Origin: a virus
Taxonomy: Duplodnaviria > Caudoviricetes
Virus record (IMG/VR): IMGVR_UViG_3300047508_000144
Location: 1,751-65,750 of that record
DNA: 64,000 bases
Reading direction: 5' to 3' (one strand)
Shown here: positions 1,438-60,725 of the stretch, one piece after another
How the letters are laid out: every line of letters starts with the position of its first letter
How positions within the stretch are numbered: the stretch's first letter is position 1
Position numbers and translations under genes: made by a program
The notes under the pieces: model-generated
Told to the model about the DNA's origin: nothing
The model's database searches: none
Seen by the model: the letters and a program-made list of their open reading frames with translations, nothing else

Positions 1438-1458
1438 GGTGTTACACGATGTAACACC
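1438..1458. repeat. 21-bp palindrome copy 1 (GGTGTTACACGATGTAACACC)
   Basis: Read directly; abuts the stop of 1459..1728 and lies just upstream of the vWA gene RBS. Confidence 0.9.
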
Positions 1459-1728
1459 CTATGAGTGAGTGTATCCGTCCGTCTCAATGCCCAGCCACAT
1501 CCCGGCCCACGGCACCATGACGCAGTCATCGCCGAAGAACGGCTGCACCGTCTTGCGAAAGCGGCGCCACTGTAGTGATGGCACCTTGACGATCTCCAGC
1601 GTGCTCCACTCGCCGCAATGCGGACAGCGTACGCCACCGTGGCGCGTGGTGACCGTGATCCAGCCGGGGAAATCCCGCTGGAAGATACGAAACAAAGCTT
1701 CACGTTGTTTACGAGTTGTCTTAACCAT
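1459..1728 (-). CDS. Hypothetical phage protein with CxxC motif
   Basis: ORF with RBS (GAGGG), fits the tightly packed - strand operon. Confidence 0.65.
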   Translation of the reverse strand: MVKTTRKQREALFRIFQRDFPGWITVTTRHGGVRCPHCGEWSTLEIVKVPSLQWRRFRKTVQPFFGDDCVMVPWAGMWLGIETDGYTHS

Positions 1729-1730
1729 GG

Positions 1731-1952
1731 TCAGTCCCTCTGTTGTGTCAGTGCAAATTCAAGTGCGTAACCCCAGTACCGGGCATCGTTCTCTTGCCCG
1801 GTTACCTTGTTGATGCGAGGCAAGGCAGGCTCGACGATCTGCTCGACGACACGCTTGTTGAATTCGCCGGGCTTACACTTACTGTACAACTTAGTCGCGG
1901 CCTTCAACTCAGCAGCGGTGAACAGTTCGCCGATAGAGATTTGTTTAGTCAC
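1731..1952 (-). CDS. Hypothetical protein
   Basis: GGAGG RBS, GTG start overlapping the upstream stop. Confidence 0.6.
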   Translation of the reverse strand: MTKQISIGELFTAAELKAATKLYSKCKPGEFNKRVVEQIVEPALPRINKVTGQENDARYWGYALEFALTQQRD

Positions 1953-2152
1953 GGTCTACCCTCCAACATTTTTTTCAGTTCCGTCTTGATGTACTCAAGG
2001 TCCTCAACACGCAGCTCGCCGCGGACCTCTCGTTGGTCGATGGATCGTTGCAACAGCACGAACGTCGTTAGCTGGTGCGTACGCAGAATGATTTGCTGGT
2101 CGATCAGACGCTTTATCCGATCGACCTTGTGACGACGTACCCAGCCAATCAT
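1949..2152 (-). CDS. Hypothetical protein
   Basis: GAGGAG RBS; 4-nt start/stop overlaps with both neighbours. Confidence 0.55.
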   Translation of the reverse strand: MIGWVRRHKVDRIKRLIDQQIILRTHQLTTFVLLQRSIDQREVRGELRVEDLEYIKTELKKMLEGRP

Positions 2153-2310
2153 TCGTAATCCTCCTCATCCTCACCACGGCAGGCAGGGCAAGCCCAGGTC
2201 TCCAAGCCGCAGGTCGTCCAGCATTGCGTCAGCGTGCGATTGCGCTTGCCGCAACAATCGCACTCGCGTTCGTCGTCCGGACACATGAGCTTCCAATCAT
2301 CGTATGTCAT
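2149..2310 (-). CDS. Small Cys-rich (zinc-ribbon-like) protein, 53 aa, not in ORF track
   Basis: Own translation MTYDDWKLMCPDDERECDCCGK...WACPACRG; GAGGA RBS. Confidence 0.6.
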   Translation of the reverse strand: MTYDDWKLMCPDDERECDCCGKRNRTLTQCWTTCGLETWACPACRGEDEEDYE

Positions 2311-2313
2311 GTG

Positions 2314-2487
2314 TCATTCCTCCTCGACAGGTTCGTCGGTCCAGTAGTCCGAGTCCATGAAGATGTCGGGTCGGAAGCCTGCACGCTTGGCGTCCTCACA
2401 CTTGTCGCAGACGAACGTGCAGAAGATGCCGCGAGCATCTTTCAGCTCGCGACGCGGCTCACCTGAACCGCAGGGGCAAAGTCTCAT
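2314..2487 (-). CDS. Small Cys-rich protein, 57 aa, not in ORF track
   Basis: Own translation MRLCPCGSG...CTFVCDKC (SEC-C-like start); AGGAG RBS. Confidence 0.65.
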   Translation of the reverse strand: MRLCPCGSGEPRRELKDARGIFCTFVCDKCEDAKRAGFRPDIFMDSDYWTDEPVEEE

Positions 2488-2501
2488 GGTTAGTCTCCTG
2501 T

Positions 2502-3584
2502 TCAGTTAGAGGTGTAGACTTCGCGATACCGCTTCACGTAGTCCATGTACGCATCGGCATCGAACAACGTCGCATCGCGCGCCGTCGCCAGCTGCCACGC
2601 CATGACGACGAACTCCGCGGTGAAGCGCTTCAGGTAGGTGTGAAGCGCATCCACGTTGCCCGTTGTCATCTTCTCGGACACCATCATGGCCGTTGCGTAC
2701 TTGATCGAGAGTTCTTCGGGTACGGGATACGTATCCGGGTCCTTCTTGATCCTGTCGATGTTCGGCAGGCTCTGCCAGACATCGACGTAAGCCAGAAACT
2801 GCACCGCCGGCCCTTCGCCGATGGCGCCGATCATGGCAGCCTCCTTGATCACCGGGTCCAGCCGCTTGTCCTGCCACAGTTCGGCGGCGGAGAACCATGT
2901 GCGTGGCGTGGCCACGATGGCTTGCGTCTTCTTCGGATCGTAGGTGTTCACGAGATCGGCGCAGAAATTCCAGAACGCCATGAACACCGATGGCACGCCT
3001 TGGCTCTGCGCGTAGACGCAGAAGTCCTCCAGCATATTGATTGCTTCGAAGTGAAGCAGACGGTTGTTGAGGGGCATGGGTAGCTTCTTCGCCAATGCCT
3101 GATCGTCCAGAAGATTGCCAGCGAGCAGCATCCGGACGTTCGGCTTCAAGACATGCTCACCAACGCAACGATTCAACACGAGTTGCTGCATGACGGCGAA
3201 CACATCATTCTTGGCGTCGGGTGCTTCGTCGAAGAACACCACGATCAACTTGTCATCTGGAAAACTATCATTCCCGATGAACGGCATCGTGCCCGGCGGG
3301 TACCAGATCGCGGAGCCGGTCTTCTTGTCGGCCTGCGGGAAGCCGCGCAAGTCCACGCTGTCGTACTGAGACAGACGGATGTCGACCAAGAGTGTGCCCG
3401 TGTAGGGACAGTCCTTGCCCAGCAGCTCTTTCAGGGCTTTGGGGTTGTCAAGCTCGTCAACAGCCTGCTCGACGCCTTGGCTCTTACCGATACCAAACCG
3501 ACCTCTAATGATGATCGGCTTGTCGAGACGAACCACAACTTCTTTGACCGTGGTCTTGATCTGGGAAATAGAAAGCTTCTTCAT
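2502..3584 (-). CDS. MoxR-like AAA+ ATPase
   Basis: Walker A GRFGIGKS, DIRLSQ..DLRG motif, Walker B VVFFDE, AGN sensor, NRL, TPRTW. Confidence 0.9.
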   Translation of the reverse strand: MKKLSISQIKTTVKEVVVRLDKPIIIRGRFGIGKSQGVEQAVDELDNPKALKELLGKDCPYTGTLLVDIRLSQYDSVDLRGFPQADKKTGSAIWYPPGTMPFIGNDSFPDDKLIVVFFDEAPDAKNDVFAVMQQLVLNRCVGEHVLKPNVRMLLAGNLLDDQALAKKLPMPLNNRLLHFEAINMLEDFCVYAQSQGVPSVFMAFWNFCADLVNTYDPKKTQAIVATPRTWFSAAELWQDKRLDPVIKEAAMIGAIGEGPAVQFLAYVDVWQSLPNIDRIKKDPDTYPVPEELSIKYATAMMVSEKMTTGNVDALHTYLKRFTAEFVVMAWQLATARDATLFDADAYMDYVKRYREVYTSN

Positions 3585-3607
3585 GGTCAGTGTCCTTTTC
3601 AGTGAAT

Positions 3608-3628
3608 GGTGTTACATCATGTAACACC
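3608..3628. repeat. 21-bp palindrome copy 2 (GGTGTTACATCATGTAACACC, perfect 10-bp arms)
   Basis: Read directly; intergenic, upstream of the AAA ATPase. Confidence 0.92.
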
Positions 3629-3644
3629 TTGAGGTTGAGGGCGG

Positions 3645-3917
3645 TTACTTGGAACGGGTGATCTTAATAGTTACTGTCGCCAGCTTGTTGTCCGGCGCCC
3701 AGCCATCCGGCGGGTAGTCGCGTTCGTCGGCATACATGACGAGACCGCGCCGCACTTCATTCAGCGGGTCTCTACCTGTAGCCTCTGCGCAATGACACAG
3801 ATCGGCAATCAAGTCCGCGATGGCATCGCAATCGTCGGTGCCAGTATCGGAAATGAAAGTTTTGAGGGCATTGTGCGCCCATGCGGCGCGGTCTTCATTG
3901 GTTGCTGTCATTTGCAA
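3645..3917 (-). CDS. Hypothetical protein
   Basis: AAAGGAG RBS; DAIADLIADLCH helical motif. Confidence 0.6.
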   Translation of the reverse strand: MQMTATNEDRAAWAHNALKTFISDTGTDDCDAIADLIADLCHCAEATGRDPLNEVRRGLVMYADERDYPPDGWAPDNKLATVTIKITRSK

Positions 3918-4102
3918 GTTGCTCCTTTCAGTAAGTCACGTGCTAATTTGATTGGCCACGAAGTCTCGGGGCCAAGCTCTGCGTAGGTCTCCAGTGCACG
4001 CTGGATTACACGCACCTCGTCCACGGTCAGCCAGCCGAAGGCTTTGCGATAGCGAAGCTCGCTCGACCGTGCAATCTCTTCCTTAGTTATCCTCGTCGTC
4101 AT
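3908..4102 (-). CDS. Hypothetical protein
   Basis: AAGGAGTGACTGAAC-ATG leader. Confidence 0.6.
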   Translation of the reverse strand: MTTRITKEEIARSSELRYRKAFGWLTVDEVRVIQRALETYAELGPETSWPIKLARDLLKGATCK

Positions 4103-4179
4103 GTTCAGTCACTCCTTGTTGAGCTAGTATCAAAGCAAGGCCGCAAGGCCGCACGCCTTGCCAGCGTCCCGAGGACTGG

Positions 4180-4467
4180 TTAGTCCGTCCCTTGAAGAAA
4201 TCGGGTAACAGGCAAATTCCAACTCTTACCGAGAAACCTCGCCACCTCATCAGCAAGTGCACGTGTCTTGCAATCGGTGATGGCGTAGGCACAGCCGTCC
4301 GGCTCACGAGCATAGACCGTCCAGAATTCGGCGCGGTCGTCCGGCACAAGACCTTCCGTCTCGCCATCATGGTCGATACAACCGGTTACTTCCAGCGAGA
4401 CGAAGTGAGCGCGCTCCGCAGGTTCACGGTTGCCAGTGCAGCAATTAAAAAGAATATCGTTATTCAT
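4180..4467 (-). CDS. Hypothetical protein
   Basis: AAGGAGTGACTGAAC-ATG leader. Confidence 0.65.
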   Translation of the reverse strand: MNNDILFNCCTGNREPAERAHFVSLEVTGCIDHDGETEGLVPDDRAEFWTVYAREPDGCAYAITDCKTRALADEVARFLGKSWNLPVTRFLQGTD

Positions 4468-5164
4468 GTTCAGTCACTCCTTCTTCTAAGTTAAATGTCA
4501 GCCAAGGATGCTCCTCCTTGACGATCGTGTTGAACCCAACCGTAGCAATAGCCATGCGATGCTCTGTCGTCAGCGCAGCAAATGACACGTCGACAAAATC
4601 CCCGACCTTCAAGTCAGGGTGCTGACGCTTACGTGTATCGAGATTAGGCTGCATCTGCATCCACACCTTGCTCGCATCCACAAGCTCCTTGATGTGTTCG
4701 CGTTGATAAGGCAGCAGCGGCTGCGGGTAATGCCGTATGATCGGCGCGCCGACAGGTACAGCGTCGGGCCCGGCATACCAAGCAGTGACGTTGTGATTGC
4801 CCTCAGTAAACCGCACTGGGACCAACGGCGCGTTGTCCTCGCTCAGCTCAGGGGAGAGCGACACCGCGCGCTTGTGATCGAGATCGAGCAGCAATGTCTG
4901 CTGCCCCTTGTGATTGAGATGCGACTTGAAAACTGGCTTGGTCGAACCGGGGATGTACAGCTTCGGGCACTCGTCATCGTCGGTCGCGACGATCTGGATG
5001 TGAAGCTCTGAGTAAACCTTGCGGTTCTCGGGACGCCACGAATTGTAGCGCACGACGAACTCGCCGGTGTCGAACTGAATGAAGGCGTGGTACTTGTGCT
5101 CGATGTGGAATGCGCGCCAGCTATCCCACTCCATCTTGGAGTGGTCGAAAGGAGGAAGTTTCAT
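4460..5164 (-). CDS. Hypothetical protein, 234 aa
   Basis: Long ORF with AAGGA RBS, in operon orientation. Confidence 0.75.
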   Translation of the reverse strand: MKLPPFDHSKMEWDSWRAFHIEHKYHAFIQFDTGEFVVRYNSWRPENRKVYSELHIQIVATDDDECPKLYIPGSTKPVFKSHLNHKGQQTLLLDLDHKRAVSLSPELSEDNAPLVPVRFTEGNHNVTAWYAGPDAVPVGAPIIRHYPQPLLPYQREHIKELVDASKVWMQMQPNLDTRKRQHPDLKVGDFVDVSFAALTTEHRMAIATVGFNTIVKEEHPWLTFNLEEGVTEHE

Positions 5165-5358
5165 GATCAGTTTCCTTGTTCAGTAAATTTATGAGTGAGC
5201 CTTTTTTTCCCTCATGCTCAGGAGGTCAGGTTAGCCGTCAACCTGCGACCGTCTGGTGCTTTGGTGTCGCCAGAATCACATCGGTTTCCCGTACCACCGA
5301 TAAGCTTCCGTCGTGGTTGTCCGCTCTCAGTCACCACGACCGGCGTTGGGTGTCCGTC

Positions 5359-5715
5359 TTACGACGTTGCGGCCCAAGCTAAAACCTCACAATCCAGCGG
5401 CGTGCTGTCCCCGTCCTTCAGGGAGACCCAACCGTTCTCGATGCGGCTTACCTGCTCTTTGCGGAAGATCAGCGAGCAGGGATTCAGCCCGACGTGCTTG
5501 CGGGCATACTCAAGTGAGGAGAATTCGTTCGCTTCGGAAGTGGCCCCGCGGAACGTCTGTACGATGTACGTCTTGGGTTCATCATGCTTGTACACGAAAA
5601 CTCCATGCTCGTTCGGCACCATGTGTTTCTGGATGGCTCGATTGTGCTGAGGTGACCTGTAACCAAACTTTTTGGCAGCGGCCCAAACAATCGCGCGTCG
5701 TTCGTCTCTCGTCAT
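5359..5715 (-). CDS. Hypothetical protein (start taken at MTRDERR)
   Basis: AAAGGA RBS ahead of ATG 5715; first gene after the 5797-5825 promoter. Confidence 0.6.
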   Translation of the reverse strand: MTRDERRAIVWAAAKKFGYRSPQHNRAIQKHMVPNEHGVFVYKHDEPKTYIVQTFRGATSEANEFSSLEYARKHVGLNPCSLIFRKEQVSRIENGWVSLKDGDSTPLDCEVLAWAATS

Positions 5716-5740
5716 CGTGGTCGTCCTTTGTTCAGTAAAT

Positions 5741-5761
5741 GGTGTTACATCATGTAACACC
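5741..5761. repeat. 21-bp palindrome copy 3 (perfect)
   Basis: Read directly; in the 5' leader between promoter and first gene. Confidence 0.92.
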
Positions 5762-5796
5762 TCCGTCCGGTGGACAGCTGATCCACCGTAACAAGC

Positions 5797-5825
5797 ATTG
5801 TACCATAAAACATGAGCAATGTCAA
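5797..5825 (-). promoter_or_regulatory. Sigma70-type promoter TTGACA-N17-TACAAT with extended -10 TG
   Basis: Near-consensus hexamers with 17-bp spacing, intergenic, oriented toward the downstream operon. Confidence 0.85.
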
Positions 5826-5861
5826 TGGGTTACTGGGAGATTTATCCTGAAAATTCCAGCC

Positions 5862-6032
5862 TCAGATAAACTCTTTCTCCTGTGCCAATCGCTCTGGCAT
5901 GGTGAAGGTGCCGTCCTCGTTATCCTGCGTCACCGACTTGGGCACCCACGCTTTGCGCACGCCGTCGAACAACAGATACGCCTTCTCAGTTTCGTGCACT
6001 ATCTCTGCTGCGACCTCGATCAATCTGCTCAT
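5862..6032 (-). CDS. Small phage protein, 56 aa, not in ORF track
   Basis: Own translation MSRLIEVAAEIVHETEKAYLLFDGVRKAWVPKS...; AGGGGA RBS. Confidence 0.65.
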   Translation of the reverse strand: MSRLIEVAAEIVHETEKAYLLFDGVRKAWVPKSVTQDNEDGTFTMPERLAQEKEFI

Positions 6033-6551
6033 GACTTATCCCCTAGTTCTTTTGGCTGCGTTCTTTGCAAACCACGCCGCCACAGCGGCAGCCTTCGCGA
6101 GGTCCGCTTCATCCATGGGCGCAACGTACGCATCGAAGTTGCGCCAAGCCGTCGCTACTCTGTTCGCCTCCTCCTCGTCCACTCTGTCAGCGATGGCGTG
6201 CCACTTACGCCGCGCCTTGTCGCCGTCTGCCCGGCAGCGCGAGCAGTTGCCCCACGCGCAACAACCGATCATGACTTTGAAATTGCCGCGCATCACAGCA
6301 CTCCTACCATCACCAGCACGATGAACGTTATAGCCAGGACCAGCGTCACCACGACAGCCAGTTGCGCCCAGACCGATGGTTTGTTCATGGAGGGGTAGCT
6401 TCCTGCGTTGCGTACTCCTGAGCAAGTCTTTCCAGCAGGGCTCGCATGCGAGCCCGCATCGTTTCGCGTTCCGTTACCGGCGCCATGTTGTGCAACAGCT
6501 GAAAACGCAAGTTATGGATTTCAGCCATTGCTTCGTGCCATTCTTTGTCGG

Positions 6552-6761
6552 TCATTTGATTTCTCCCCGTACTAGATGATAGGACCGCACGTTGTCGATC
6601 GCGTTGGCCAAGTGGCGCAGACTGATGCTCACTTGCTCAGCGTGATAGTTGACCTCGTCGAGGAACTCACGAACGACTTGCGTCTTTTTAGTCTGCTTGT
6701 CCTTCTCCTTGAAATACTTCTTGAGCTGCTTCTTGGCTTTGAGCTTCTTGGTTTTCTTCAT
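6552..6761 (-). CDS. Basic hypothetical protein
   Basis: ATGA overlap with upstream gene; Lys-rich N-terminus. Confidence 0.55.
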   Translation of the reverse strand: MKKTKKLKAKKQLKKYFKEKDKQTKKTQVVREFLDEVNYHAEQVSISLRHLANAIDNVRSYHLVRGEIK

Positions 6762-6976
6762 GACTTCACCGCGCCCGCAAGCCCTGTCATCGGCTGCAGC
6801 TTGTTGATGAGCCGTTGCATGGCGCGCGCCTTCTTGTCGTGCTCCGCGCTGAGCTTTTTATTGAGCCGGGTCTCGTACCACTTGGCTTCGGACTCCTGAC
6901 GCTTGGCCGCGCGCTGCAGGGCCTCTACAATCAGGCTGATCTCGGCATTGGCGAAAACGTGCTGATGGAATTGCAT
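6758..6976 (-). CDS. Hypothetical helical protein (start MQFHQ)
   Basis: AAGGAG RBS, downstream of a putative promoter. Confidence 0.6.
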   Translation of the reverse strand: MQFHQHVFANAEISLIVEALQRAAKRQESEAKWYETRLNKKLSAEHDKKARAMQRLINKLQPMTGLAGAVKS

Positions 6977-6996
6977 GGGCTGTGTTCTCCTTGTGA

Positions 6997-7033
6997 GATT
7001 ATATCTGATCACATCTGATCATCAATTGTCAAG
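6997..7033 (-). promoter_or_regulatory. Putative promoter region (TTGACA / TTGATG ... TATAAT) containing a TGATCAGAT direct repeat
   Basis: TATAAT is 16 bp from TTGATG and 23 bp from TTGACA; at a divergence point. Confidence 0.5.
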
Positions 7034-7593
7034 GAAAAACTGAAATGAATTGGCGCGGGCAAAGAGAAATATATTGGGTGGTCGGAGTGACGGTCATCGC
7101 CATCGCACTGGTCCTCGTGCTGGCTTACGTGCTGGGATGAGTTTAGATCGGGATCAAAGAGTTTTCTTCATTGGCGTCGGCGTCATGCTGGGCTTCCTGT
7201 TTGGCCTTGCAGCGTGGGGCTACATCACCGGCCTTTGGGACGTGCTGGGTCCGTATCCTTGAGCCTGTTACGCAGCTTGTCCGCCTTCCTCGCTGCGTAC
7301 TCGACATGACCCAAGAGCCGGCGCAGCCGGGCGGCGAGGTATTCCAGCTCTTCCTGAATGCGCCCTGACTGGCGCAGGGCCTTGCGCGCACTACGCCGGG
7401 ACCGATCATGACGCCGCGGTTCGTTCACATCCCTTCTCCGGTGTGCACGGGATCATCGGCGAGCAAAGCCCGTGGACGAACCAGCACCGCCCGCAGAGCA
7501 GCGTACCGATCTTTTCATCAAAGAACGGCTGTGGATGCTCGCAGTCGTACGGACAGTGCGCGTGGCTGCAACCATGCAAGGCGTACCAATCCC

Positions 7594-7830
7594 TCACGCG
7601 GTCAGGTGCTTGATCGCCCACATCGTGGCTTCCTCGATCCGCGTTTGCGCGAGGCTGATCTCCCGGGATTTGCCAAGCTCGCCGACCAGCTTCCAGAACT
7701 CAAGCCCCTTGTCCTTGATCTCCCGCATCTGCTCCTTCTCGATCGGCGAAAGCACGCGGTACTCGTGCCGCATCACGTTGTTGACGACGCGCTCGTCCGA
7801 CGTCGAGTCCACTGTCTTGCGAGAAGTCAT
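7594..7830 (-). CDS. Acb2/Tad1-like anti-defence (cyclic-nucleotide sponge) protein, 78 aa
   Basis: YRVLSPIEKEQMREIKDKG resembles the Acb2 N-terminal YRDLSQEEIDMMNRVKELG; SREISLAQTRIEEATMW resembles the Acb2/Tad1 hairpin; GGAGAG RBS before ATG 7830. Confidence 0.7.
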   Translation of the reverse strand: MTSRKTVDSTSDERVVNNVMRHEYRVLSPIEKEQMREIKDKGLEFWKLVGELGKSREISLAQTRIEEATMWAIKHLTA

Positions 7831-8361
7831 GGTTACTCTCCGATCTAAGCTTGTATCGGGATAATGCTTGATGTGTTCGAGGGTACCGTGTGGCCAGCTC
7901 TCGTTACCCTTGAGCCCATCCCATCGTATGACGATGCAGGCGCCGCCGGGGTGCGGCGTGTGCATCACAGTACCGCGCCGCGCCGCCCAGTCGGTAGTCA
8001 CCTTCCGTCGTAATACACAATAGCCACGCAGTGCTTGCTGCGCCGCAGCAGCCGTCAGCCGCACGCGGTCGCCTCGCCTGAACCTGGTCAGGCACCGTGG
8101 CATCGACAGGAGCCCCGTGGGAGGTTTTCCGGGGCCGGAGGTTAACAGAGCCCGTCCATGCGTACAAACGCCATGGGCGGGCTCCGTACGCTCAGCACGC
8201 TACCGTACAGGTGCGGGTGGACAGTCCGGTGCCGGCACGATGGGGCAGTTCGGCTGGGACTGCCAGCGGCCCATGGAATAGCCAAGGGCCGCCAGCGCAA
8301 ACAGGAGCATGAGGACAGCAACGAAGACGACGATTGCTGCCCTGACCGCCACGGCTACCGC

Positions 8362-8673
8362 TTAGGGTCGCTTGGGCTGTGGGCCACTCTGGGCAGGAAC
8401 GAAGTACCACTGTATTTGGTCACCCTGCGCGGCGAGACCCCAGCCACCGGTCACCGGGGCGGGCTTGATGACGACGGCAAGGGCGGGCGGCGGCTGGTCC
8501 GGCGGCGGGTCGACCGGGATCGGTGGCGGGGTGTCCGGGATCACCGGGCCGCCGCCAACCGACAGTCCTGGGATGGAAGCGTAACCGATGAACACAGCCG
8601 GCACCGGCTTGTCGTCGGCACCTTTTCCTTTGGGCATCATCACGCCGTTGATAACGACAGGTACTGCGGCCAT
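8362..8673 (-). CDS. Proline-rich hypothetical protein
   Basis: AAAGGAG RBS, coherent codon usage. Confidence 0.7.
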   Translation of the reverse strand: MAAVPVVINGVMMPKGKGADDKPVPAVFIGYASIPGLSVGGGPVIPDTPPPIPVDPPPDQPPPALAVVIKPAPVTGGWGLAAQGDQIQWYFVPAQSGPQPKRP

Positions 8674-8710
8674 GCTCAGTCTCCTTTGTTGTCAGGGGGT
8701 TAGTTCACGA

Positions 8711-8731
8711 GGTGTTGCATCATGTAACACT
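8711..8731. repeat. 21-bp palindrome copy 4 (GGTGTTGCATCATGTAACACT)
   Basis: Read directly; overlaps the HAD gene stop codon. Confidence 0.85.
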
Positions 8732-9190
8732 TTCTTGAGTAGCGAGATCGTCCCTGATCTCTTCCTTGATGACCCTTCCTTGCTGGTTCCACGGCTTGAA
8801 CCTGAGCAGGGTCTCGGGATCGAGCTTCGACCAGTCGCCGTCGAAGCATATAGCACGATCGTCGATGGTCAGGAACGCGCTTGGTTTCTCGCTGGCAAAA
8901 GTGACGGCATCCAAGAGTGCCTCCGCGGCTTCCCGCGGGAGTTCGCTGCGGGCGTGGAACTGGAGCCACATCCGCATGGCGGTGAGCGCCTCCGGGTCCT
9001 TGGAACGCGACGAGTAGACCACGAGGGTGAAGAGCCTAGAGGCGCGGTGCAGCCACTCCAAGGCGCCCGGCACCGGCGGATCAGGGATGATCGCCGCGCC
9101 CTTCCAGCCGCTGGTGTAGGAGTGGACCACGCCGTCCCAGTCCACACAAAGGATAGGCTTGTTCGTTCGTTGTTGTGCTTCGAATGTCAT
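8720..9190 (-). CDS. HAD-superfamily hydrolase/phosphatase
   Basis: Motif I CVDWDGV, motif II YSSR, KP...IDDRA. Confidence 0.85.
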   Translation of the reverse strand: MTFEAQQRTNKPILCVDWDGVVHSYTSGWKGAAIIPDPPVPGALEWLHRASRLFTLVVYSSRSKDPEALTAMRMWLQFHARSELPREAAEALLDAVTFASEKPSAFLTIDDRAICFDGDWSKLDPETLLRFKPWNQQGRVIKEEIRDDLATQESVT

Positions 9191-9453: not shown

Positions 9454-9461
9454 GGCAATAG

Positions 9462-9485
9462 AAAAGGCGGGCTTGCGCCCGCCTT
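9462..9485 (-). terminator. Intrinsic terminator after the PEP-CTERM-like gene
   Basis: AAGGCGGGC-GCAA-GCCCGCCTT followed by a T run on the - strand. Confidence 0.7.
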
Positions 9486-11746: not shown

Positions 11747-11767
11747 GGTGTTACATCATGTAACACT
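11747..11767. repeat. 21-bp palindrome copy 5 (GGTGTTACATCATGTAACACT)
   Basis: Read directly; 1 bp after the stop at 11769. Confidence 0.9.
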
Positions 11768-13455: not shown

Positions 13456-13671
13456 ATGGATCAGGATTACGCCGCGACCAACGCGGCGGAGCGCGCGGCG
13501 TTCGCCAATGGCCAGCAATCGAGGCAAGGCGAGGTCGATGCTTTACTCGCTGCGCTATGTACGGTGCGCGCGATCCTCAACAGCAACGACAGATACAAGG
13601 CGCGCAGTGCACGGCTCTACCTTCAGGAGGTGTTACATGATGTAACACCTTCTAATTGCGGTACGAGCTAA
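13456..13671 (+). CDS. Hypothetical protein
   Basis: GGAG RBS; follows a small + strand TM ORF. Confidence 0.5.
   Translation: MDQDYAATNAAERAAFANGQQSRQGEVDALLAALCTVRAILNSNDRYKARSARLYLQEVLHDVTPSNCGTS
13629..13649. repeat. 21-bp palindrome copy 6 (GGTGTTACATGATGTAACACC)
   Basis: Read directly; left flank of the putative origin. Confidence 0.92.
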
Positions 13672-14104: not shown

Positions 14105-14125
14105 GGTGTTACATTATGTAACACC
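14105..14125. repeat. 21-bp palindrome copy 7 (GGTGTTACATTATGTAACACC; arms extend to 14102-14128)
   Basis: Read directly; right flank of the putative origin. Confidence 0.92.
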
Positions 14126-14242: not shown

Positions 14243-14306
14243 AAAAAACCCCGCGCGGCTTTCGCCGCGCGAGGCATAAAAAAACCCCGCGGCTTTCGCC
14301 GCGGGG
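14243..14306 (-). terminator. Tandem intrinsic terminators
   Basis: Two GC stems closed by GAAA loops (14278-14306, 14243-14274), each followed by T6-7 on the - strand. Confidence 0.88.
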
Positions 14307-14324
14307 CAGTAGGCTAGGCTAGGC

Positions 14325-14978
14325 TTAGCGCGGAGCGTTGGCCAGCCAATCGCGCCACTCGGAACCACGATCGCCGACAAGCTTCGCGGCATACTTTTTC
14401 TGGATTGCCTTCATCGACAGGACAAGGCGATTCAGCGCGTCGAAAGCGTCGACGTCGTCCGGAGGATTGATAATCTCATCGGCCTTGATCAAGCGCTGCT
14501 CGTGCGCTTCCTTCTCCGCCTTGACTTGCTCCGCCTTAACGGCAGTCTCCGCCTTGGCCTCTGTGATCCCGGCCATACGCTTTGCCCGGGAGACTAGGAC
14601 GCGCACTGCGGTCATAACCCGCTCTTGCTCCGCCGTACGGTTGTCGTCCGTGTTCTTGGCAGGGTTAAGCTGATTGTACTTTTTCAAGCCAATCACTCGC
14701 CTTGCCTCATCCCGGGCATAGCTAAGCTTCCGGACGAAATAGCCTTCCGTCAAAGCTTGGACCATGTCGCCGATAACCTTGTCGTTCGCCTTGAACGTGG
14801 TGAAGGCGACGGTCAAGGCGCCGTCCTGCCCTGCCATGGTCTGCCCATACTCAAAGGCAATGTCGATAGCTTGGGCTGGCGTCATGGCCGTTGAACCATT
14901 GGCCTTAGCCTTAGCCTTGCCATTGGCCTTGGACACAACGGGAGCAACGGGAGTCACGATCGATTGAACGTTAGTCAT
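14325..14978 (-). CDS. Monocistronic basic helical protein, 217 aa, function unknown
   Basis: Own promoter upstream, double terminator downstream; Ala/Lys-rich. Confidence 0.8.
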   Translation of the reverse strand: MTNVQSIVTPVAPVVSKANGKAKAKANGSTAMTPAQAIDIAFEYGQTMAGQDGALTVAFTTFKANDKVIGDMVQALTEGYFVRKLSYARDEARRVIGLKKYNQLNPAKNTDDNRTAEQERVMTAVRVLVSRAKRMAGITEAKAETAVKAEQVKAEKEAHEQRLIKADEIINPPDDVDAFDALNRLVLSMKAIQKKYAAKLVGDRGSEWRDWLANAPR

Positions 14979-15037: not shown

Positions 15038-15067
15038 ACAATAGCACGGTACACAGCTTGATGTCAA
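15038..15067 (-). promoter_or_regulatory. Sigma70-type promoter TTGACA-N18-TATTGT with extended -10 TG
   Basis: Perfect -35 and TGnTATTGT upstream of 14978. Confidence 0.7.
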
Positions 15068-15073: not shown

Positions 15074-15094
15074 GGTATTACATGATGTAACACC
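15074..15094. repeat. 21-bp palindrome copy 8 (GGTATTACATGATGTAACACC)
   Basis: Read directly; 6 bp upstream of the -35 box. Confidence 0.88.
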
Positions 15095-18944: not shown

Positions 18945-18946
18945 TA

Positions 18947-54836: not shown

Positions 54837-55162
54837 GAGCCCTGCTCCTGCTCCTGCAACATCGCTTTGAAAAGAATAAGATATACGATGAGGTCGTCAC
54901 ACCGACCTTTGAGACTCTCCATACGCGAGCGGTTCTTACCGGCGTGGACATCGGCGCAGTACTGCGTGATGGCATCCCAGTGCTTGCCGGCGTAGACCGC
55001 CCAGATGATTTCCTTCGGCAGATTCAGGCGCGCGCCGTTGCGCTTGAAGTTCTCCAGGCGATCGTGGTCGCCAGCGTATTCCCCGCCCTTTTTCTTGCCA
55101 AGCTCGTTGATGGTCTCCCAGGTTTCAGCGACGATCTTGTCATAAGTGGTGTGGTCAATCAT
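54833..55162 (-). CDS. Nucleotide-modification-associated all-alpha protein (Nmad1/DUF1599-like)
   Basis: KKGGEYA..D.LENF ... KH.D ... DDLIVY pattern. Confidence 0.55.
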   Translation of the reverse strand: MIDHTTYDKIVAETWETINELGKKKGGEYAGDHDRLENFKRNGARLNLPKEIIWAVYAGKHWDAITQYCADVHAGKNRSRMESLKGRCDDLIVYLILFKAMLQEQEQGS

Positions 55163-55277
55163 GATGTCGGTACCCTTCGTTTTTCAGAGGGATAGAGGGT
55201 ACAACACCCCCCGCTCGTGGCTAGAGCGGAGGGTGTTGATAGTGTGAAAAACGCAGTGACTAAAGGCGAGCAGGAAC

Positions 55278-56396
55278 TCAGTCGTCGTCCCAATCCTTGA
55301 GGATGGTATCGAGGGGCGGCGATCCCGTGGTAGCGGGAGCAGAGGCAGGAGCCCGCTTTGCGACGGGCTCATCCTCATCGTCATCATCCAGTACCGCAGT
55401 CTTGCGCGCCGCGGCGGCAGCCGCAGCCGCTTCGGCCTTCTTCTGGGCCTTGCCCTTCCCGTTCGTAGGTGCAGCTGCAGCGGGAGCTGCTGCTGGTGCA
55501 GGCTTAGGCGCAGCAGCCTTCTTAGGAGCTGCAGGCGGCGCAATCTCCAACGGAGATTCGTCCTCGTCAGTCTCTTCCTCGTCCGCTTCGGTGATGCCCG
55601 GCGGACGTGTACCGGCGAAGCCGGTGAAGTCAGTCTTGAGCAGATCATCGAGACTGGGCGACTCGGCGATCTCCGCACACGTTGCCATCTCCTCCTCGCT
55701 CAGCCAGCGGCCGGGCGAGAACCACAGCTTCGGGTACGACTTGGTATTGTCAAACCTGATCTTGGTGGTCAGCGAGTAGGTAAACGGCACCTGCTTCGAC
55801 TTGAGGAAGTTGAGATAGTTCGTGAATGCGAACATCCCCTTGGCTTGTGCTTCCTTGTTGAGACCGTCGAAGTCACTGGTCTGTGGAATCTTGAGACGCA
55901 GCACCGGCGCCGCAGTGAGGTCGCGGCTCTTCGGCACGATTGCAAGGTTGCGGTGCACGGCGCACGCCGCAGCAGGCTTGCCCTGATCGGTCTGCCGCGA
56001 GCCCTTGATCGACTGCGGGCAGACGTTGCACTTCTCCGACTGCCGCTCGGACGAGTTCGGGCTCGACGTGACCCCGTCGTTCGACCAGCAGACCGGCGCG
56101 TTCTCCGCGTTCGGATCATAGGCGCGCCCGCCGTAGTACGCACGCCCACGGTTCTCGTTGTAGGCGATGATGATGGCATCGAAAGTCTGGATCAGTTCTT
56201 CTTCGCCATCTGCATTGGTGCGCATCAGCGGCTTCTTGCTGCCGTCGATGATCACCGTCCAGACCTTGCCGGGGAAGGTCAGAGCGTTGACCTGACTCCG
56301 GGTTACGATGTTGCTGGTCCCGGCCTCCTGCGCGGCCTTGACGTGTGCCGGCGTTTGGTTCGGGTCGAAGATTGCTAGCGGATTGTTGTTAGCCAT
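55278..56396 (-). CDS. Putative ssDNA-binding/annealing protein
   Basis: RAYY..YDP...PVCWSNDG, C..CP..IKGS, acidic tail ending DWDDD; replication context. Confidence 0.7.
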   Translation of the reverse strand: MANNNPLAIFDPNQTPAHVKAAQEAGTSNIVTRSQVNALTFPGKVWTVIIDGSKKPLMRTNADGEEELIQTFDAIIIAYNENRGRAYYGGRAYDPNAENAPVCWSNDGVTSSPNSSERQSEKCNVCPQSIKGSRQTDQGKPAAACAVHRNLAIVPKSRDLTAAPVLRLKIPQTSDFDGLNKEAQAKGMFAFTNYLNFLKSKQVPFTYSLTTKIRFDNTKSYPKLWFSPGRWLSEEEMATCAEIAESPSLDDLLKTDFTGFAGTRPPGITEADEEETDEDESPLEIAPPAAPKKAAAPKPAPAAAPAAAAPTNGKGKAQKKAEAAAAAAAARKTAVLDDDDEDEPVAKRAPASAPATTGSPPLDTILKDWDDD

Positions 56397-56463
56397 TTCA
56401 ATGTATCCTTAGTTTGCGTTCCAAGGTCAGTCGGGGTCCTGGGACGGAACACACCCAGGACCC

Positions 56464-56484
56464 GGTGTTACACCATGTAACACT
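56464..56484. repeat. 21-bp palindrome copy 9 (GGTGTTACACCATGTAACACT)
   Basis: Read directly; overlaps the stop at 56484, next to a GC hairpin at about 56432-56465. Confidence 0.88.
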
Positions 56485-56882
56485 TATTTGCGGAGAACTT
56501 TGGCGATGTACTCTTTCACCACGGTGATCCCGGGCGGGAGTTCGTCCTTGTTATCCTCCATGAATTGCGTGATGAAGGATTTCTTGACGCGACGTTCGAG
56601 CGCATCGAACGCCTCGTTCTCGGCGATCCAGGCATAGAACGCATTCCAGTCTTCGCAACTGGGTTTGACATCGAGAGAACGATATATCGTTCCGTGCTTT
56701 GTGCGCGCGCTCTCGATACCCAAGTCCCGCAGCGTCTCCAGGAAGAAGCCCTCAATAGTATCGATCTGATCCTTCAGCTTGAGGTCTTCGGCCTCCCACG
56801 CTTTCTTCAATTCGGACCGCTTATCCCTGATCTTGACATAGGTTGCAGCGGCCTTGTCGAGCTTCACCTCTTGCTCAGTCAT
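56484..56882 (-). CDS. Conserved phage replication-module protein (start MTEQEV)
   Basis: YVKIRD coiled coil, RTKHGT, DW..FY.WI, LERRV, LPPG motifs; AAAGGA RBS. Confidence 0.75.
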   Translation of the reverse strand: MTEQEVKLDKAAATYVKIRDKRSELKKAWEAEDLKLKDQIDTIEGFFLETLRDLGIESARTKHGTIYRSLDVKPSCEDWNAFYAWIAENEAFDALERRVKKSFITQFMEDNKDELPPGITVVKEYIAKVLRK

Positions 56883-56917
56883 CGGCTTTCCTTTCAGTAA
56901 GATTTTCAGTTGGTCAG

Positions 56918-58474
56918 TCATTGGATAACCCTCTCGTACAGTTTCAGTATACTCTCCTGGTTAAGTGCCCGGCCATCGAGCAAGTTGTAGATGTCCTGCT
57001 CGAATGGACAGGCGGCGATACGAACGATGGTCATCTTACGGGTCTGCCCCGTACGATTAAATCGTTCGATTACTTGCGCGTATTCGTCGTGCGAATAGAT
57101 CGGCGCATAGAAGATGGTCGTGTCGGCTTCTGTCAGATTGAGTCCATGAGCCATCACCTTGGGGTGGCATAGCAGCACGCGCGGGTCGGGCCCCGATTTG
57201 AAAGCACGAATGATCCGATTGCGTGCGCCGATGCTAACATCGCCGTTCATCACCGCAAGGCTAAAATGCTTCGCGAGTTCAGTCTCCAGTGCACGGGTGA
57301 TTCCCTTGAACGGAACGATCACAATCACCTTGGCCGAAGCCTCATTGATTGTATCGATCAATTCGTTGAGCCGGGCCGAGTGGTCAATGGTCTCGTACGT
57401 ATCATCCCCGTTCTTCACTGCCCCGCAGCAGATTTGCCGGAGCTTGATAAGCGCATCTGCGGCGTTGACCGCGGTGATCCTCGTGGTCTTGGCTTGCAGG
57501 ATCATGTAATCCCGCATGAGGTTGTATGCTTTCTCCTGCTCCGCCGTGAGCTTCGTGCGCCGGTTGGCAACAGTCAGCGGTGGCAGGCTGATGCAATCCT
57601 TCTTCTTGATGCGCCATGCCGGCTGCAGCGCATCGAACACGATCTGTTCGTGGCCGTTCACCGGGCGCCACTTGTACTGACCCACCTGCCGCATGGTCAT
57701 GCGCTGGAACGTGCCGAAGAACTTGGGCACTCGCGCCGGACAGACCAGCCGCGCGAGCGCCCATGCGTCCGTTGGTGCATTAGGACAAGGAGTACCGGTC
57801 AGCAGCCATACCCGCTTCTTGTTCTCGGTAGCCCACGCAAAATACTTGTACGAAATGTTGCGGCTGTTGCGAAAGAAGCTCGCCTCGTCGAGGATGATGA
57901 GGTCGATGTCTTTTCGTTTGCGTACCAGCTTGGCGATCTCCTGGTCTCTGATCATGTCATGGTTGGCAATGTAGAAGTCCACGTCCATGCCGAAAGCATT
58001 AAGCCGGTACTCACGATCGCCATGAGTGACCACGCTCGACCGATGCATCAAGACATCGAAGATGTCTTGCTGCCACACAGTCTCCAGAATGGACAGCGGT
58101 GAAAGGATAAGCGCTCTCCTTACTATGCCGACTGACATGAGATAGTCCGCGGCCCACAGCGCCGAGAAGCTCTTGCCGACTCCCATCTCCGAGAGATTGA
58201 GACACTTGAGATTACGGACGTGGAAGTCCGTCATCGGTCGCTGATGTACGAACGGCGTGTACTTGCCCGGCCAGTTGTACTGATACTCGACAGGAGACGG
58301 CACGTCCTTGAACCCAAGCTCATTGAGTTTAAGCGTGGTCTCCAACGTGTGCTTGATTTGAACGTTGCCTTCGGCAGCGTTGATCAGGCGACTCTGTCTG
58401 GGAAAAAATGTGAGCACACGCGACGGATCGCGTAGCTTGAGCACGACGCTCTTGGTTGGTTGGTGTATCAACAT
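56918..58474 (-). CDS. SNF2/DEAD-like helicase
   Basis: EMGVGKS, ILDEAS, LTGTP, HGLNLT, Q..ERFNRTGQ. Confidence 0.92.
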   Translation of the reverse strand: MLIHQPTKSVVLKLRDPSRVLTFFPRQSRLINAAEGNVQIKHTLETTLKLNELGFKDVPSPVEYQYNWPGKYTPFVHQRPMTDFHVRNLKCLNLSEMGVGKSFSALWAADYLMSVGIVRRALILSPLSILETVWQQDIFDVLMHRSSVVTHGDREYRLNAFGMDVDFYIANHDMIRDQEIAKLVRKRKDIDLIILDEASFFRNSRNISYKYFAWATENKKRVWLLTGTPCPNAPTDAWALARLVCPARVPKFFGTFQRMTMRQVGQYKWRPVNGHEQIVFDALQPAWRIKKKDCISLPPLTVANRRTKLTAEQEKAYNLMRDYMILQAKTTRITAVNAADALIKLRQICCGAVKNGDDTYETIDHSARLNELIDTINEASAKVIVIVPFKGITRALETELAKHFSLAVMNGDVSIGARNRIIRAFKSGPDPRVLLCHPKVMAHGLNLTEADTTIFYAPIYSHDEYAQVIERFNRTGQTRKMTIVRIAACPFEQDIYNLLDGRALNQESILKLYERVIQ

Positions 58475-58496
58475 GTTCAGTCACTCTCTACTTATA

Positions 58497-58525
58497 AGTG
58501 TATCATCTTATTAGGTATTTGTCAA
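58497..58525 (-). promoter_or_regulatory. Sigma70-type promoter TTGACA-N17-TACACT with extended -10 TG
   Basis: Consensus -35, 17-bp spacer, directly upstream of the helicase. Confidence 0.8.
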
Positions 58526-58882
58526 GTTTTGCTGCCACTTCATCAGCTGGTGATGATGACTAGGTTTTACGATCTCTAAATCAAACATGAGTGTGGTGCG
58601 TAATACCTCGACATTGGTTTCGTCCACCAAGAAAGCATAGTGCCCGGCGTCGTGAATCATTTTGAGAAACTCAAGTTGTAGCTGCGTTGGTACGTCGTCG
58701 TACTTGGTCTCGATTGCCATGAATAGCGCGGGCTTCTTCACGGCAAGGAAGTCACTCACACCGACCCGACCAAACATACCGGAATTCGGCATCCAGCATT
58801 TCCACCCGGTGTCCTTAAGAATTAGTTTAACTTGTTTCTTGACCCACCACTCACTCTGGTCAGCGGTCTTTGGTTTCCTCAT
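58511..58882 (-). CDS. VRR-NUC-like nuclease/resolvase (start MRKPK)
   Basis: E..VK, GVSDF, IETK, PTQLQ..FL motifs. Confidence 0.82.
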   Translation of the reverse strand: MRKPKTADQSEWWVKKQVKLILKDTGWKCWMPNSGMFGRVGVSDFLAVKKPALFMAIETKYDDVPTQLQLEFLKMIHDAGHYAFLVDETNVEVLRTTLMFDLEIVKPSHHHQLMKWQQNLTNT

Positions 58883-59553
58883 CGCTTCGGTCTCCAGTAC
58901 TTGCAGCCAATCACAGGACACCACCCGTTGCAGAGTCCGGATTGGCGCAGCTGCCAGGTGTCAGTTCTAAAAGCTTCACGGTACTGACGCAGATCGCCAG
59001 TGAGTTCGCCCCATAGCGCGGGCACCTGTTCGCGGCTCCACCGCTTGACGGACGTGGTGCGATCCTTGGTCCAGTAGAACATGACGTCGATCGTGTCGAA
59101 GTAACCGAACTCCTGGAATGCCCACAGTGCATAGATGACCAGCTGGTTGAACTTGTTGTATGGCTTGCCGGTCTTGTAGTCCACGATCCACCCGTGGCGC
59201 TCGCGTGCATCGATCTTCAGGTAGTCGATGATCATCCGGCACCACACGTTCTTGTCGCCCCATTCGCAAGTCTCCAGGTTCTTCGCCAGCGCCGCCTTGT
59301 GCTCGATGTACGCATTGCCGGATTGCGCAGCCAGGACCTGCATGAACGGTTCGTGAGTCGCTAAGTCAGGCGGCAGCTTCACACGCTTCGGTCTCTGCCT
59401 ATCGGCGAACGCCTCATGTACGTACTTGCCATACACCTGCTCCTTACTATCCTCCTCAGGTGGCAGGTCCTTGAGCACATAGCGATGGTGGTACTGCTCC
59501 GGGCAGTTCTTGAAAGTATCCAGCGCGCTTGGTGACCAAGGGAGTGGTTTCAT
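58879..59553 (-). CDS. PD-(D/E)XK (Cas4/RecB-like) exonuclease (start MKPLPW)
   Basis: WSPS.L..F..CP, G..VH, IIDY..VDYKTG, QL..YA, C-terminal C..WC....C. Confidence 0.88.
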   Translation of the reverse strand: MKPLPWSPSALDTFKNCPEQYHHRYVLKDLPPEEDSKEQVYGKYVHEAFADRQRPKRVKLPPDLATHEPFMQVLAAQSGNAYIEHKAALAKNLETCEWGDKNVWCRMIIDYLKIDARERHGWIVDYKTGKPYNKFNQLVIYALWAFQEFGYFDTIDVMFYWTKDRTTSVKRWSREQVPALWGELTGDLRQYREAFRTDTWQLRQSGLCNGWCPVIGCKYWRPKR

Positions 59554-60155
59554 GTGCGTAGTCCTGTTAAGTCGGATGGTTGCCGTCTGGTCTTGACTGG
59601 GCCGTTGTCGAACAAGGTGGTCTCCTTGCCCCAGCTGGTCCAACCCGGGCGAGTGTTGCGACTGAACAATTCGAGATAGGGTCCAGCATAAAGTCGTTCG
59701 ATATACTCGTAGGCAATCTCCGGCTTGCGAGAATGTTCGCGGCGCGGCGCAATGATCAACTCCGGGACATCATGAGCCAGCACTTTTGGTTTGCCGCGAA
59801 CCGCAAGCAGGCAACGCTCCGGGTTGGCACGAGTAGAGTACCCGTTGCCGATCGGGAAACGCTTGCCGTCCTTGGTGGTCTTGACATAGGTGAAGATGGT
59901 GCCCTTCTCGACGAAGCCCCAGCTGTCCAGCAGATCGGCGATGACGCGCGACGGCAGCCAGCGTGTGACCCACAGCAGCAACGCACAATCCCTAGCAGTG
60001 AAGGTATCCAGCGTCCTGCGTAGCGCATGCAGCTGTACGAGACTCAGCGTGTCGTAATGCGAGACCGCGCTGCGGCCGGTGCCCTTGGCCGAGAACGTTT
60101 TGAACGACCACGGCGGGTCCGCATAGATGACGCTGAAGCGGCCGAGTTCTCTCAT
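59550..60155 (-). CDS. MT-A70 family methyltransferase
   Basis: VIYADPPW, LLWVT, WGF, HSRKP, YLELFSR, GW..WG motifs. Confidence 0.92.
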   Translation of the reverse strand: MRELGRFSVIYADPPWSFKTFSAKGTGRSAVSHYDTLSLVQLHALRRTLDTFTARDCALLLWVTRWLPSRVIADLLDSWGFVEKGTIFTYVKTTKDGKRFPIGNGYSTRANPERCLLAVRGKPKVLAHDVPELIIAPRREHSRKPEIAYEYIERLYAGPYLELFSRNTRPGWTSWGKETTLFDNGPVKTRRQPSDLTGLRT

Positions 60156-60724
60156 GTGAGCTTGATCCCAAGTTTGCGGACGATCTGGTTGGCGCGGATT
60201 GCCTGGTTCTCGGCATCAGCAAGCGCAGTATGCAGCGTGCCCAGATACTGTCCCTCCTCAATGGTCAACATGCTGCGCAACGTGCGGAAGCAGCGATCAT
60301 GCCTAAAGCTCCAGGGCGTATCACGTGAAGCTATCTCGTACGCCTGTCTCAGGAGTACGTTGTCGAAGCCGGCGCCGTTGCCCCAGATACGCACGTTGGT
60401 GATCTGGAGACCTTGCACGATGATCTGGGGCAGTTCGTGAAGCCAGCCACTGAACCCGTCCAGCGCCACGAGCGTCGTGACCTTGGGCATGTGCCACCAC
60501 TCTCTACGTGCTTCGTCGCGCTCTCTGTCCATCCACCACATCAGGGTCTCGGCATCGACGCGCAGCCCGGTATTAGTCGGGGCGATCGCAACCTCGAACC
60601 GATCTGTGATGATCTTGTCTTGCTGTTCAGTGTAGGGATTGAACACACAAGCCCCGATCGAAATGATGGTGGAATAGGGAGAGGTCCCCCAGGTCTCCAG
60701 ATCAAGCATTACATGATGTAACAT
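60152..60724 (-). CDS. DEDDh 3'-5' exonuclease/exoribonuclease (start MLHHVM)
   Basis: MLDLET, WGNGAGFDN, RCFRT, HTALADA. Confidence 0.88.
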   Translation of the reverse strand: MLHHVMLDLETWGTSPYSTIISIGACVFNPYTEQQDKIITDRFEVAIAPTNTGLRVDAETLMWWMDRERDEARREWWHMPKVTTLVALDGFSGWLHELPQIIVQGLQITNVRIWGNGAGFDNVLLRQAYEIASRDTPWSFRHDRCFRTLRSMLTIEEGQYLGTLHTALADAENQAIRANQIVRKLGIKLT

Positions 60725-60725
60725 T
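60705..60725. repeat. Degenerate palindrome copy 10 (AGCATTACATGATGTAACATT)
   Basis: Core TTACATGATGTAA intact; overlaps the exonuclease start codon. Confidence 0.6.

Follow-up and report, generated by a model that had tools for sequence, protein, structure and literature searches.

The 64,000-nucleotide stretch analysed here (the window) covers bases 1751-65750 of the 65,750-bp IMG/VR virus record IMGVR_UViG_3300047508_000144, a Caudoviricetes genome rated complete by CheckV. The element in question is a 21-bp palindrome, GGTGTTACAnnnTGTAACACC, which is dispersed along one arm of this phage genome. Minus-strand genes occupy positions 1-15047 and 51924-64000 of the window, and plus-strand virion genes occupy 15376-51934. 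The minus-strand genes encode a family A DNA polymerase, an SNF2 helicase, a primase-helicase, exonucleases, an MT-A70 methylase and an Acb2/Tad1-like protein. The large terminase, the portal, an N4-type major capsid protein, a collagen-like fibre and a protein of 2,189 aa are encoded on the plus strand. According to the synteny with related genomes, both minus-strand blocks form one contiguous leftward arm of ~29 kb (the early arm) that starts at the divergent region near 15.1 kb; it is seen as two blocks because the record is cut inside it.

With up to three mismatches allowed, nine matches to GGTGTTACAnnnTGTAACACC were determined in the window, and all the positions named in a first-pass annotation made from the sequence alone were recovered. 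In dinucleotide shuffles the mean number of matches was 0.01, and none of the 100 shuffles reached nine. A further copy at 60705, AGCATTACATGATGTAACATT, had been called degenerate by the same annotation. It carries five mismatches but retains TTACA-N3-TGTAA and scored 16.6 bits on a position weight matrix (PWM) of all sites. This copy is regarded as a decayed orthologue because three related genomes carry good sites at its position (G001:16890, G002:17557 and G004:33522). The copies, to which no strand is assigned, are the following (ORF, open reading frame; RBS, ribosome-binding site; SSB, single-stranded DNA-binding protein):

1438..1458, no strand: palindrome, 0 mismatches; between the stop of ORF 1459-1728 and the RBS of the DUF2201 metallopeptidase/VWA gene 221-1420
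3608..3628, no strand: palindrome, 0 mismatches; upstream of the ATPase gene 2502-3584
5741..5761, no strand: palindrome, 0 mismatches; in a 5' leader, 35 nt downstream of the -10 of an internal promoter
8711..8731, no strand: palindrome, 2 mismatches; its loop TGA (minus strand) also serves as stop codon for ORF 8720-9190
11747..11767, no strand: palindrome, 1 mismatch; abuts the stop codon of ORF 11769-12110
13629..13649, no strand: palindrome, 0 mismatches; left flank of an iteron-rich inverted repeat
14105..14125, no strand: palindrome, 0 mismatches; perfect 13-nt arms (14102-14128), right flank of the iteron region, ~125 nt downstream of tandem terminators
15074..15094, no strand: palindrome, 1 core mismatch (GGTATTACA half); 6 nt upstream of the -35 of the leftward early promoter
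56464..56484, no strand: palindrome, 1 mismatch; between ORF 56484-56921 and the SSB-like gene 55278-56396
60705..60725, no strand: decayed palindrome, 5 mismatches, 16.6 bits; good sites of relatives at the same position

As described earlier, the arms were nearly constant and the central 3 bp varied (CGA, TCA, TGA, TTA and CCA in the window). A PWM scan of both arms at a threshold of at least 8 bits resulted in ten sites, all of them in the early arm, in agreement with the reported lack of copies in the virion arm, and the shuffled sequences gave ~0.05 sites per genome. The remaining 1,750 bases of the record contained no further copy.

The exact 21-mer was detected in 36 stretches of IMG/VR. 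Five near-complete relatives from this database were fetched whole and, together with the genome of the window, form the six-genome set to which the counts below refer. The relatives were 72-86% identical in nucleotide sequence to the genome of the window over 32-57 kb and contained 12, 12, 8, 10 and 10 copies, which gives a range of 8-12 copies per 56-66 kb among the six genomes. The early arm held 60 of the 61 sites; the single exception, G002:33509, was found at a junction between tail genes. The bias cannot be attributed to a lack of space because, of the 31,732 non-coding bases, 12,709 (40%) belong to the other arm, as do 78 of the 240 gaps that measure 21 bp or more. Owing to the relatedness of the six genomes, the 61 sites are not independent events. 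The sites were invariant while their flanks had diverged to 72-86% identity.

Three positions carried a site in all six genomes, i.e. beside the early promoter, in the leader of the internal promoter, and upstream of the SSB-like gene (56464), whereas the other positions varied. The features of the early arm that are referred to here are:

15038..15067, minus strand: leftward early promoter TTGACA-18-TATTGT, conserved in six genomes
14325..14978, minus strand: immediate-early gene for a 217-aa all-helical protein of no recognised family, with 80 homologues, all on phage-like contigs
14248..14307, minus strand: two tandem intrinsic terminators closing the one-gene immediate-early unit, identified from the sequence
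5797..5825, minus strand: internal early promoter TTGACA-17-TACAAT, identified from the sequence

The placement of two copies, 15074 and 5741, beside sigma70 promoters was thus correctly noted in the first-pass annotation. In all six genomes the palindrome lay 1-12 nt upstream of the early -35, and the distance from the internal promoter to the palindrome was 35-45 nt. Deviations from the core were found in four of the six promoter-proximal copies compared with 10 of the 55 other sites.

The sites were mostly located at gene junctions, as had been proposed. Along early transcription, a stop codon that often touched or overlapped the palindrome usually came first, followed by the palindrome itself, a leader of 10-45 nt with the pattern yTTACTGAa...AAGGAG, and ATG. 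In 50 of the 60 early-arm sites the upstream frame first stopped between -30 and +15 of the site start, and in 36 of the 60 a Shine-Dalgarno sequence and a start codon followed within 80 nt (median 32.5 nt). One copy lies inside a gene: at G002:14927-14947 (locus L044) the exact 21-bp palindrome is in frame in the DNA polymerase gene and is read as GVTSCNT. This peptide falls in a variable loop where the enzyme of the window differs, and G311 shares the copy of G002.

The invariant core was determined to be GTGTTACA-N3-TGTAACAC. In the PWM of the 61 sites, positions 2-9 and 13-20 were conserved at 96-98%, T and A occupied positions 10 and 12 in 75% of the sites, and an A preceded the 21-mer in 73%. 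The dyad therefore extends to -1/+1 and comprises ~23 bp. When a -35 was sought upstream of the phage sites at the distance seen in hosts, no flank position beyond -1/+1 was conserved, and none of the sites was followed by a T-run. The loop triplets were even in both orientations (TGA 12 and TCA 12; TCG 7 and CGA 7), and the half-sites degenerated independently. When read in the sense of the transcript, the departures from pairing comprised 30 mismatches compared with 7 G-U pairs (12 compared with 5 in the core pairs), and double changes were observed at the outermost pair only. The site is regarded as an element of double-stranded DNA rather than an RNA hairpin because the variants break the pairing more often than they keep it and because the loops are equal in both orientations. 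This pattern fits independent half-sites on double-stranded DNA that would be read by a symmetric dimer, and not a hairpin of RNA or single-stranded DNA.

To find further occurrences of the motif, a reference set with one genome per species (185,579 species, 596 Gb) was scanned, and the context was read at 80 loci with flanks. The 19-mer core GTGTTACAnnnTGTAACAC was present in 104 stretches, which is roughly the chance number, and 12 of the 80 loci were from Acidobacteriota. At nine of the 80 exact-match loci the motif was located directly upstream of a BlaI-like ORF, as determined with a hidden Markov model of the repressors. Eight of the nine loci belonged to Acidobacteriaceae and the ninth to a Planctomycetales metagenome-assembled genome (MAG). 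In the eight Acidobacteriaceae loci, each from a different species and including Occallatibacter savannae AB23 (locus L130) and a Terracidiphilus MAG, the palindrome stood 1 nt before the ATG of the same small gene. The gene encodes a penicillinase repressor of the BlaI/MecI/CopY family (Pfam PF03965, E 2e-26 to 4e-28) and is followed by a gene for a BlaR1-type M56 peptidase (PF05569), the 770-aa product of which, in one genome, had no recognised penicillin-binding sensor domain. In Acidobacteriaceae the 19-mer overlaps the promoter and the start of the blaI-blaR1 operon. Versions with 1-2 mismatches were carried by paralogous blaI-blaR1 operons, and six near-match sites abutted paralogues. 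Five host genomes of 4.3-6.4 Mb had 1-3 sites each at up to two mismatches. The GC content was 58-63% at the host loci and 56-60% in the phages. The sole sequencing run holding window positions 5100-15099 was a soil metagenome (DNA), and no RNA run was listed.

No corresponding regulator was detected in the phages. A BlaI homologue was absent from the six genomes (tblastn E above 1; best E ~1 in an hmmsearch of 7,007 six-frame ORFs). No Pfam DNA-binding domain of the helix-turn-helix (HTH), ribbon-helix-helix (RHH) or winged-helix type was found in 58 ORFs (18 + 40), no repressor was assigned by PHROGs among the 40 largest ORFs, and neither a repressor nor an integrase family was found among the ORFs scanned by PHROGs and Pfam. 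The first-pass annotation had likewise seen no recognisable repressor in the window. From the sequence matches, this absence is likely explained by a host repressor of the BlaI/MecI/CopY family with the identical 19-bp operator.

The motif was also found in a second phage lineage. The IMG/VR fragments G315 and G317 contained five and four copies, respectively, within ~1.5 kb where a block of small leftward genes begins, and G315 had one extra copy with a 4-nt spacer. Over its 10.3 kb, G315 showed no tblastx similarity to the phage family of the window, and its terminase and portal belonged to other PHROG families. The motif is therefore not tied to the proteins of one lineage, and its presence in an unrelated one favours a host-encoded reader.

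The palindromes are best interpreted as operators for a winged-helix BlaI/MecI/CopY repressor of Acidobacteriaceae that would silence the early arm until relief, a reading that is given about an even chance of being correct. A dimeric protein silencing or roadblocking the whole early arm had been proposed before. The palindromic symmetry of double-stranded DNA, the 23-bp dyad and the network of operators agree with that part of the proposal; the repressor itself is probably encoded by the host and not, as was implied, by the phage. According to this interpretation, the phage would have copied a host operator into its early arm. Repressor dimers bound at the site by the early -35 would occlude the promoter, and dimers at about nine gene-junction sites would roadblock the host RNA polymerase along the ~29-kb arm, leaving the virion arm free. 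Relief might be achieved by two routes, i.e. by cleavage of the repressor by the host BlaR1-like M56 sensor protease upon a host signal, or by titration of the repressor by replicating phage DNA. The binding of the repressor, the repressive direction of its effect and the mode of relief are all predicted from sequence.

Several results weigh against this interpretation. At up to one mismatch, the motif was carried by 6 of the 151 sampled genomes of the family, and a control with the reversed pattern gave 6 hits compared with 7 real ones; because the control was equally frequent, the host evidence rests on gene context and not on counts, and the operator seems to mark a subgroup of the family. 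When window 1-20000 was searched at the DNA level against 301 Acidobacteriaceae genomes, the matches were only weak, most of them to the collagen-like repeat region, and no spacer-like link was found; one weak match was in an unpublished genome (G278) and supports no conclusion here. The putative host is assigned only from the operator match, the GC content and the habitat. The spacer was 3 bp in all 61 phage sites, in contrast to 2 bp in the characterised members of the BlaI/MecI/CopY family. Seven of the nine window sites were not near a recognisable promoter, and repression at these sites would therefore need roadblocking, which is not established for the BlaI family. It is also not obvious why a phage without lysogeny genes would accept silencing. 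Finally, a phage protein with an unrecognised fold and the same specificity is a candidate for the reader.

The last possibility is the first of the alternatives to be weighed. A phage-encoded dimeric DNA-binding protein of unrecognised fold, either the 217-aa protein or another conserved early protein, would read the sites, and the identity with the host operator would result from mimicry, competition or chance. The networks of stoperators and of P1 C1 do run on phage-encoded repressors, and several conserved early proteins of the present phages lack a family assignment. The early promoter 15067-15038 serves only the gene of the 217-aa protein, and this unit, which is conserved in all the family members, runs from a strong promoter to the two terminators at 14307-14248. 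The product of this first early gene looks like an immediate-early regulator or antiterminator; its N-terminus is rich in lysine, and no function is assigned to any of its homologues. However, its AlphaFold2 model (predicted local distance difference test score 81) gave no informative fold match: the best E value was 0.32 with Foldseek against the PDB, and a wide VIA-align search resulted in a best Z of 6.1 with generic helical bundles. The protein atlas placed the protein in clusters of viral hypothetical proteins only, and the IMG/VR search by it returned the same phage family only. The lack of HTH, RHH and winged-helix domains and of PHROG repressors in the scanned ORFs also speaks against a phage reader, as do the 16 specified bases and the 3-bp spacing shared with the host blaI operator and the presence of the motif in the unrelated lineage with no detectable shared protein. 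A phage-encoded reader is thus considered rather unlikely.

Binding by the host repressor is also assumed in the second alternative, in which the array would act as a titration sponge or buffer and phage transcription would not be controlled. The excess of 8-12 high-scoring sites per phage over 1-3 per host genome is in accordance with such a role, and replication would multiply the sites. A sponge, however, has no need to avoid the virion arm, which nearly all the sites do, nor to hold a site next to the early -35 and another in the internal-promoter leader in each of the six genomes. The known host regulon consists of blaI-blaR1 pairs only, and the benefit of its derepression would be unclear. 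A pure sponge is accordingly rated as rather improbable.

Much less room is left for RNA hairpins with a 9-bp stem and a 3-nt loop; between the cistrons, these would mark sites of processing, stabilise the mRNA or bring about factor-dependent termination. Most sites do lie between a stop codon and the next RBS, and a perfect stem would fold. The pairing departures and the orientation-free loops given above speak against such hairpins, of which RNA-processing ones had been listed as an alternative in the first-pass annotation, and neither a U-tract after the sites nor a match in the Rfam scan was found (the Rfam and tRNA scans of the window had no matches). In addition, the site upstream of the early promoter is outside the early transcript, the exact copy in the DNA polymerase gene of G002 is translated, and in hosts the motif is a promoter-overlapping element. 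RNA hairpins are very unlikely on these grounds.

Cassette recombination sites had been suggested as well; as linkers or cassette boundaries, the palindromes would favour the shuffling of genes in the early arm. Between relatives, 3-13% of the BLAST alignment ends lay no more than 30 bp from a site centre compared with 2-3% for random positions, i.e. 1.5- to 5-fold more often. This enrichment is small and confounded by the intergenic location of the sites; several sites are in fully syntenic contexts in all six genomes, and the identity with the host operator would not be explained. The suggestion is not upheld by these results and is regarded as highly improbable.

The early promoters of N4, finally, are hairpins with a 3-nt loop, and the major capsid protein of the window phage matches N4-type capsids. 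The phage also has a 2,189-aa virion protein (31344-37913), and the 2,270-aa counterpart in StenR_269 was guessed by its authors to be a possible virion RNA polymerase (PMC10747016, excerpt). N4-style DNA hairpin promoters are nevertheless hardly credible here: neither PHROGs nor Pfam nor a phmmer search of the PDB gave a match for the 2,189-aa protein, to RNA polymerases or otherwise, its only phage match was a weak likeness of residues 1559-2085 to a Snf2/DarB-like protein of Agrobacterium phage Atu_ph08 (tblastn, 24% identity, E 2e-6), the loop bases show no strand specificity and a promoter with palindromic symmetry would be active in both directions, transcription of the arm is driven by strong sigma70-type promoters, and the motif occurs in host chromosomes too.

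If the palindromes are operators of the host repressor, a further step can be proposed only tentatively, and it is held with clearly less confidence than the repressor binding itself. Phages without a repressor of their own may use the host BlaI-BlaR1 pair as a dormancy/lysis switch, in which the sensor protease would time early-arm transcription by cleaving BlaI, and this use may have arisen independently in at least two unrelated lineages of soil Acidobacteriaceae phages. The membrane sensor protease would read an extracellular or envelope signal, and the weaker, non-consensus site at the early promoter together with the strong downstream sites would grade the response. In that case operator arrays could predict hosts and reveal the roles of orphan BlaR1-like sensors.

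Among the neighbouring elements, the inverted repeat at 13711-14027 is iteron-rich: at least eight copies of TGTGCCGT/ACGGCACA were counted, and its two arms of 49 nt show 86% complementarity. The repeat may serve as a replication origin or as a second operator system. The sites 13629 and 14105 flank it, which agrees with the earlier remark that two copies bracket a putative origin; a 14-bp palindrome, TTAGCATATGCTAA, adjoins site 14105.

Directly after the palindrome 56464, a leader hairpin was observed at 56385-56463 (minus strand). It covaries, its loop GTTCC is invariant in all six genomes, and an invariant GGAAC follows ~12-17 nt downstream of it, also in all six. As judged from the sequence, GTTCC and GGAAC form a candidate pseudoknot in the leader of gene 55278-56396. 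The product of this gene contains cysteines like those of zinc fingers and, as in an SSB, an acidic tail at the C-terminus, and the leader of the gene recalls the autoregulatory leader of T4 gene 32.

The minus-strand ORF 7594-8103 contains the Acb2/Tad1 hairpin domain PF24729 (E 2.2e-15), and its product probably acts as a nucleotide sponge against CBASS/Thoeris. The DUF2201 metallopeptidase/VWA gene 221-1420 and the MoxR-like ATPase gene 2502-3584 (phrog_1297) were kept in all six genomes, and each of them is preceded by a palindrome in the window. A megablast search of window 1-20000 against GenBank phages gave no match. The nearest cultured relative by the capsid protein, though a distant one, was Pseudomonas phage Rollin (OR577172.1), in which the 21-bp palindrome was not found. 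Within its first 500 bp (3-500, locus L069), at a divergent region, Rollin has four copies of another 25-bp palindrome, AAAAGGTAGyAAsTTrCTACCTTTT.

Hardly anything is known of the phages of Acidobacteria, a phylum dominant in soil, and the operator match offers a host prediction without CRISPR or prophage evidence. Provided that the host repressor does bind, the control of virulent phages by host regulators, as with Spo0A and CtrA, would extend to the protease-coupled BlaI/BlaR1 family, a stoperator-like roadblock network would be run by a host protein, and such phages could help to trace the signals of the many BlaR1-like sensors in soil bacteria.

In comparison with known systems, a resemblance of the half-site to that of parS (TGTTNCA) had been pointed out in the first-pass annotation. 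This resemblance was not borne out: parS has a 16-bp consensus, the arms and the spacing of the palindrome differ from it, the BlaI half-operators match better, and no ParB family was found among the ORFs scanned by PHROGs and Pfam. The closest in layout are the stoperators of L5 gp71 in the Cluster A mycobacteriophages, near-identical sites at short intergenic junctions that are thought to block the elongating polymerase. Stoperators are asymmetric 13-mers with an orientation bias that lie in both arms of a temperate phage and are bound by a phage-encoded immunity repressor. The present sites similarly occur in large numbers at gene junctions inside transcription units, but they are palindromic, orientation-free and confined to one arm, and no repressor or integrase family was found among the ORFs scanned.

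The operators of BlaI and MecI are dyads of 24-30 bp around TACAnnTGTA, with AAAGTATTACAT as the half-operator of Bacillus licheniformis (PMC1935004, excerpt), and the CopY site is RNYKACANNTGTMRNY (PMC7253601, excerpt). The phage half-site GTGTTACAT resembles GTATTACAT of B. licheniformis OP1 (same excerpt of PMC1935004), and the half-site GGTGTTACAT is of the same type; in the phages as in the BlaI/MecI/CopY family, the dyad has a TACA/TGTA core with conserved flanks. In Acidobacteriaceae, the same site adjoins the repressor's own operon and shares the 3-bp spacer with the phage sites. The phage arrangement differs from the characterised members in that about ten copies are dispersed over an arm instead of one or two at a promoter, and the host system differs in that no penicillin-binding sensor domain was recognised in its BlaR1-like protein.

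In the way a phage would rely on a host regulator, the closest parallels are the Spo0A boxes through which phi29 is suppressed by B. subtilis (PMC2731898, excerpt) and the CtrA sites in phages of Alphaproteobacteria, for which the term 'lytic deferment' was used (PMC9437464, excerpt). In these excerpts, phages without lysogeny genes (phi29 and Nf in the case of Spo0A) have a skewed distribution of host-regulator sites, and early transcription is suppressed or timed by the state of the host. The sites described here likewise match the operator of a host regulator that the phage lacks, and their skew is conserved in relatives and recurs in unrelated phages. In contrast, the repressor family involved here would be one inactivated by a membrane sensor protease, the host phylum would be Acidobacteriota, and the sites lie along the whole early arm at junctions and are not concentrated in promoter regions. 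Within the library searched, no description was found of BlaI-family sites in phage genomes or of dispersed conserved inverted repeats in phage early regions. Compared with all these systems, the new aspects would be the family of the regulator, the dispersal of its sites from one gene junction to the next, a host among the Acidobacteria and the convergent occurrence of the array in two lineages of phages.

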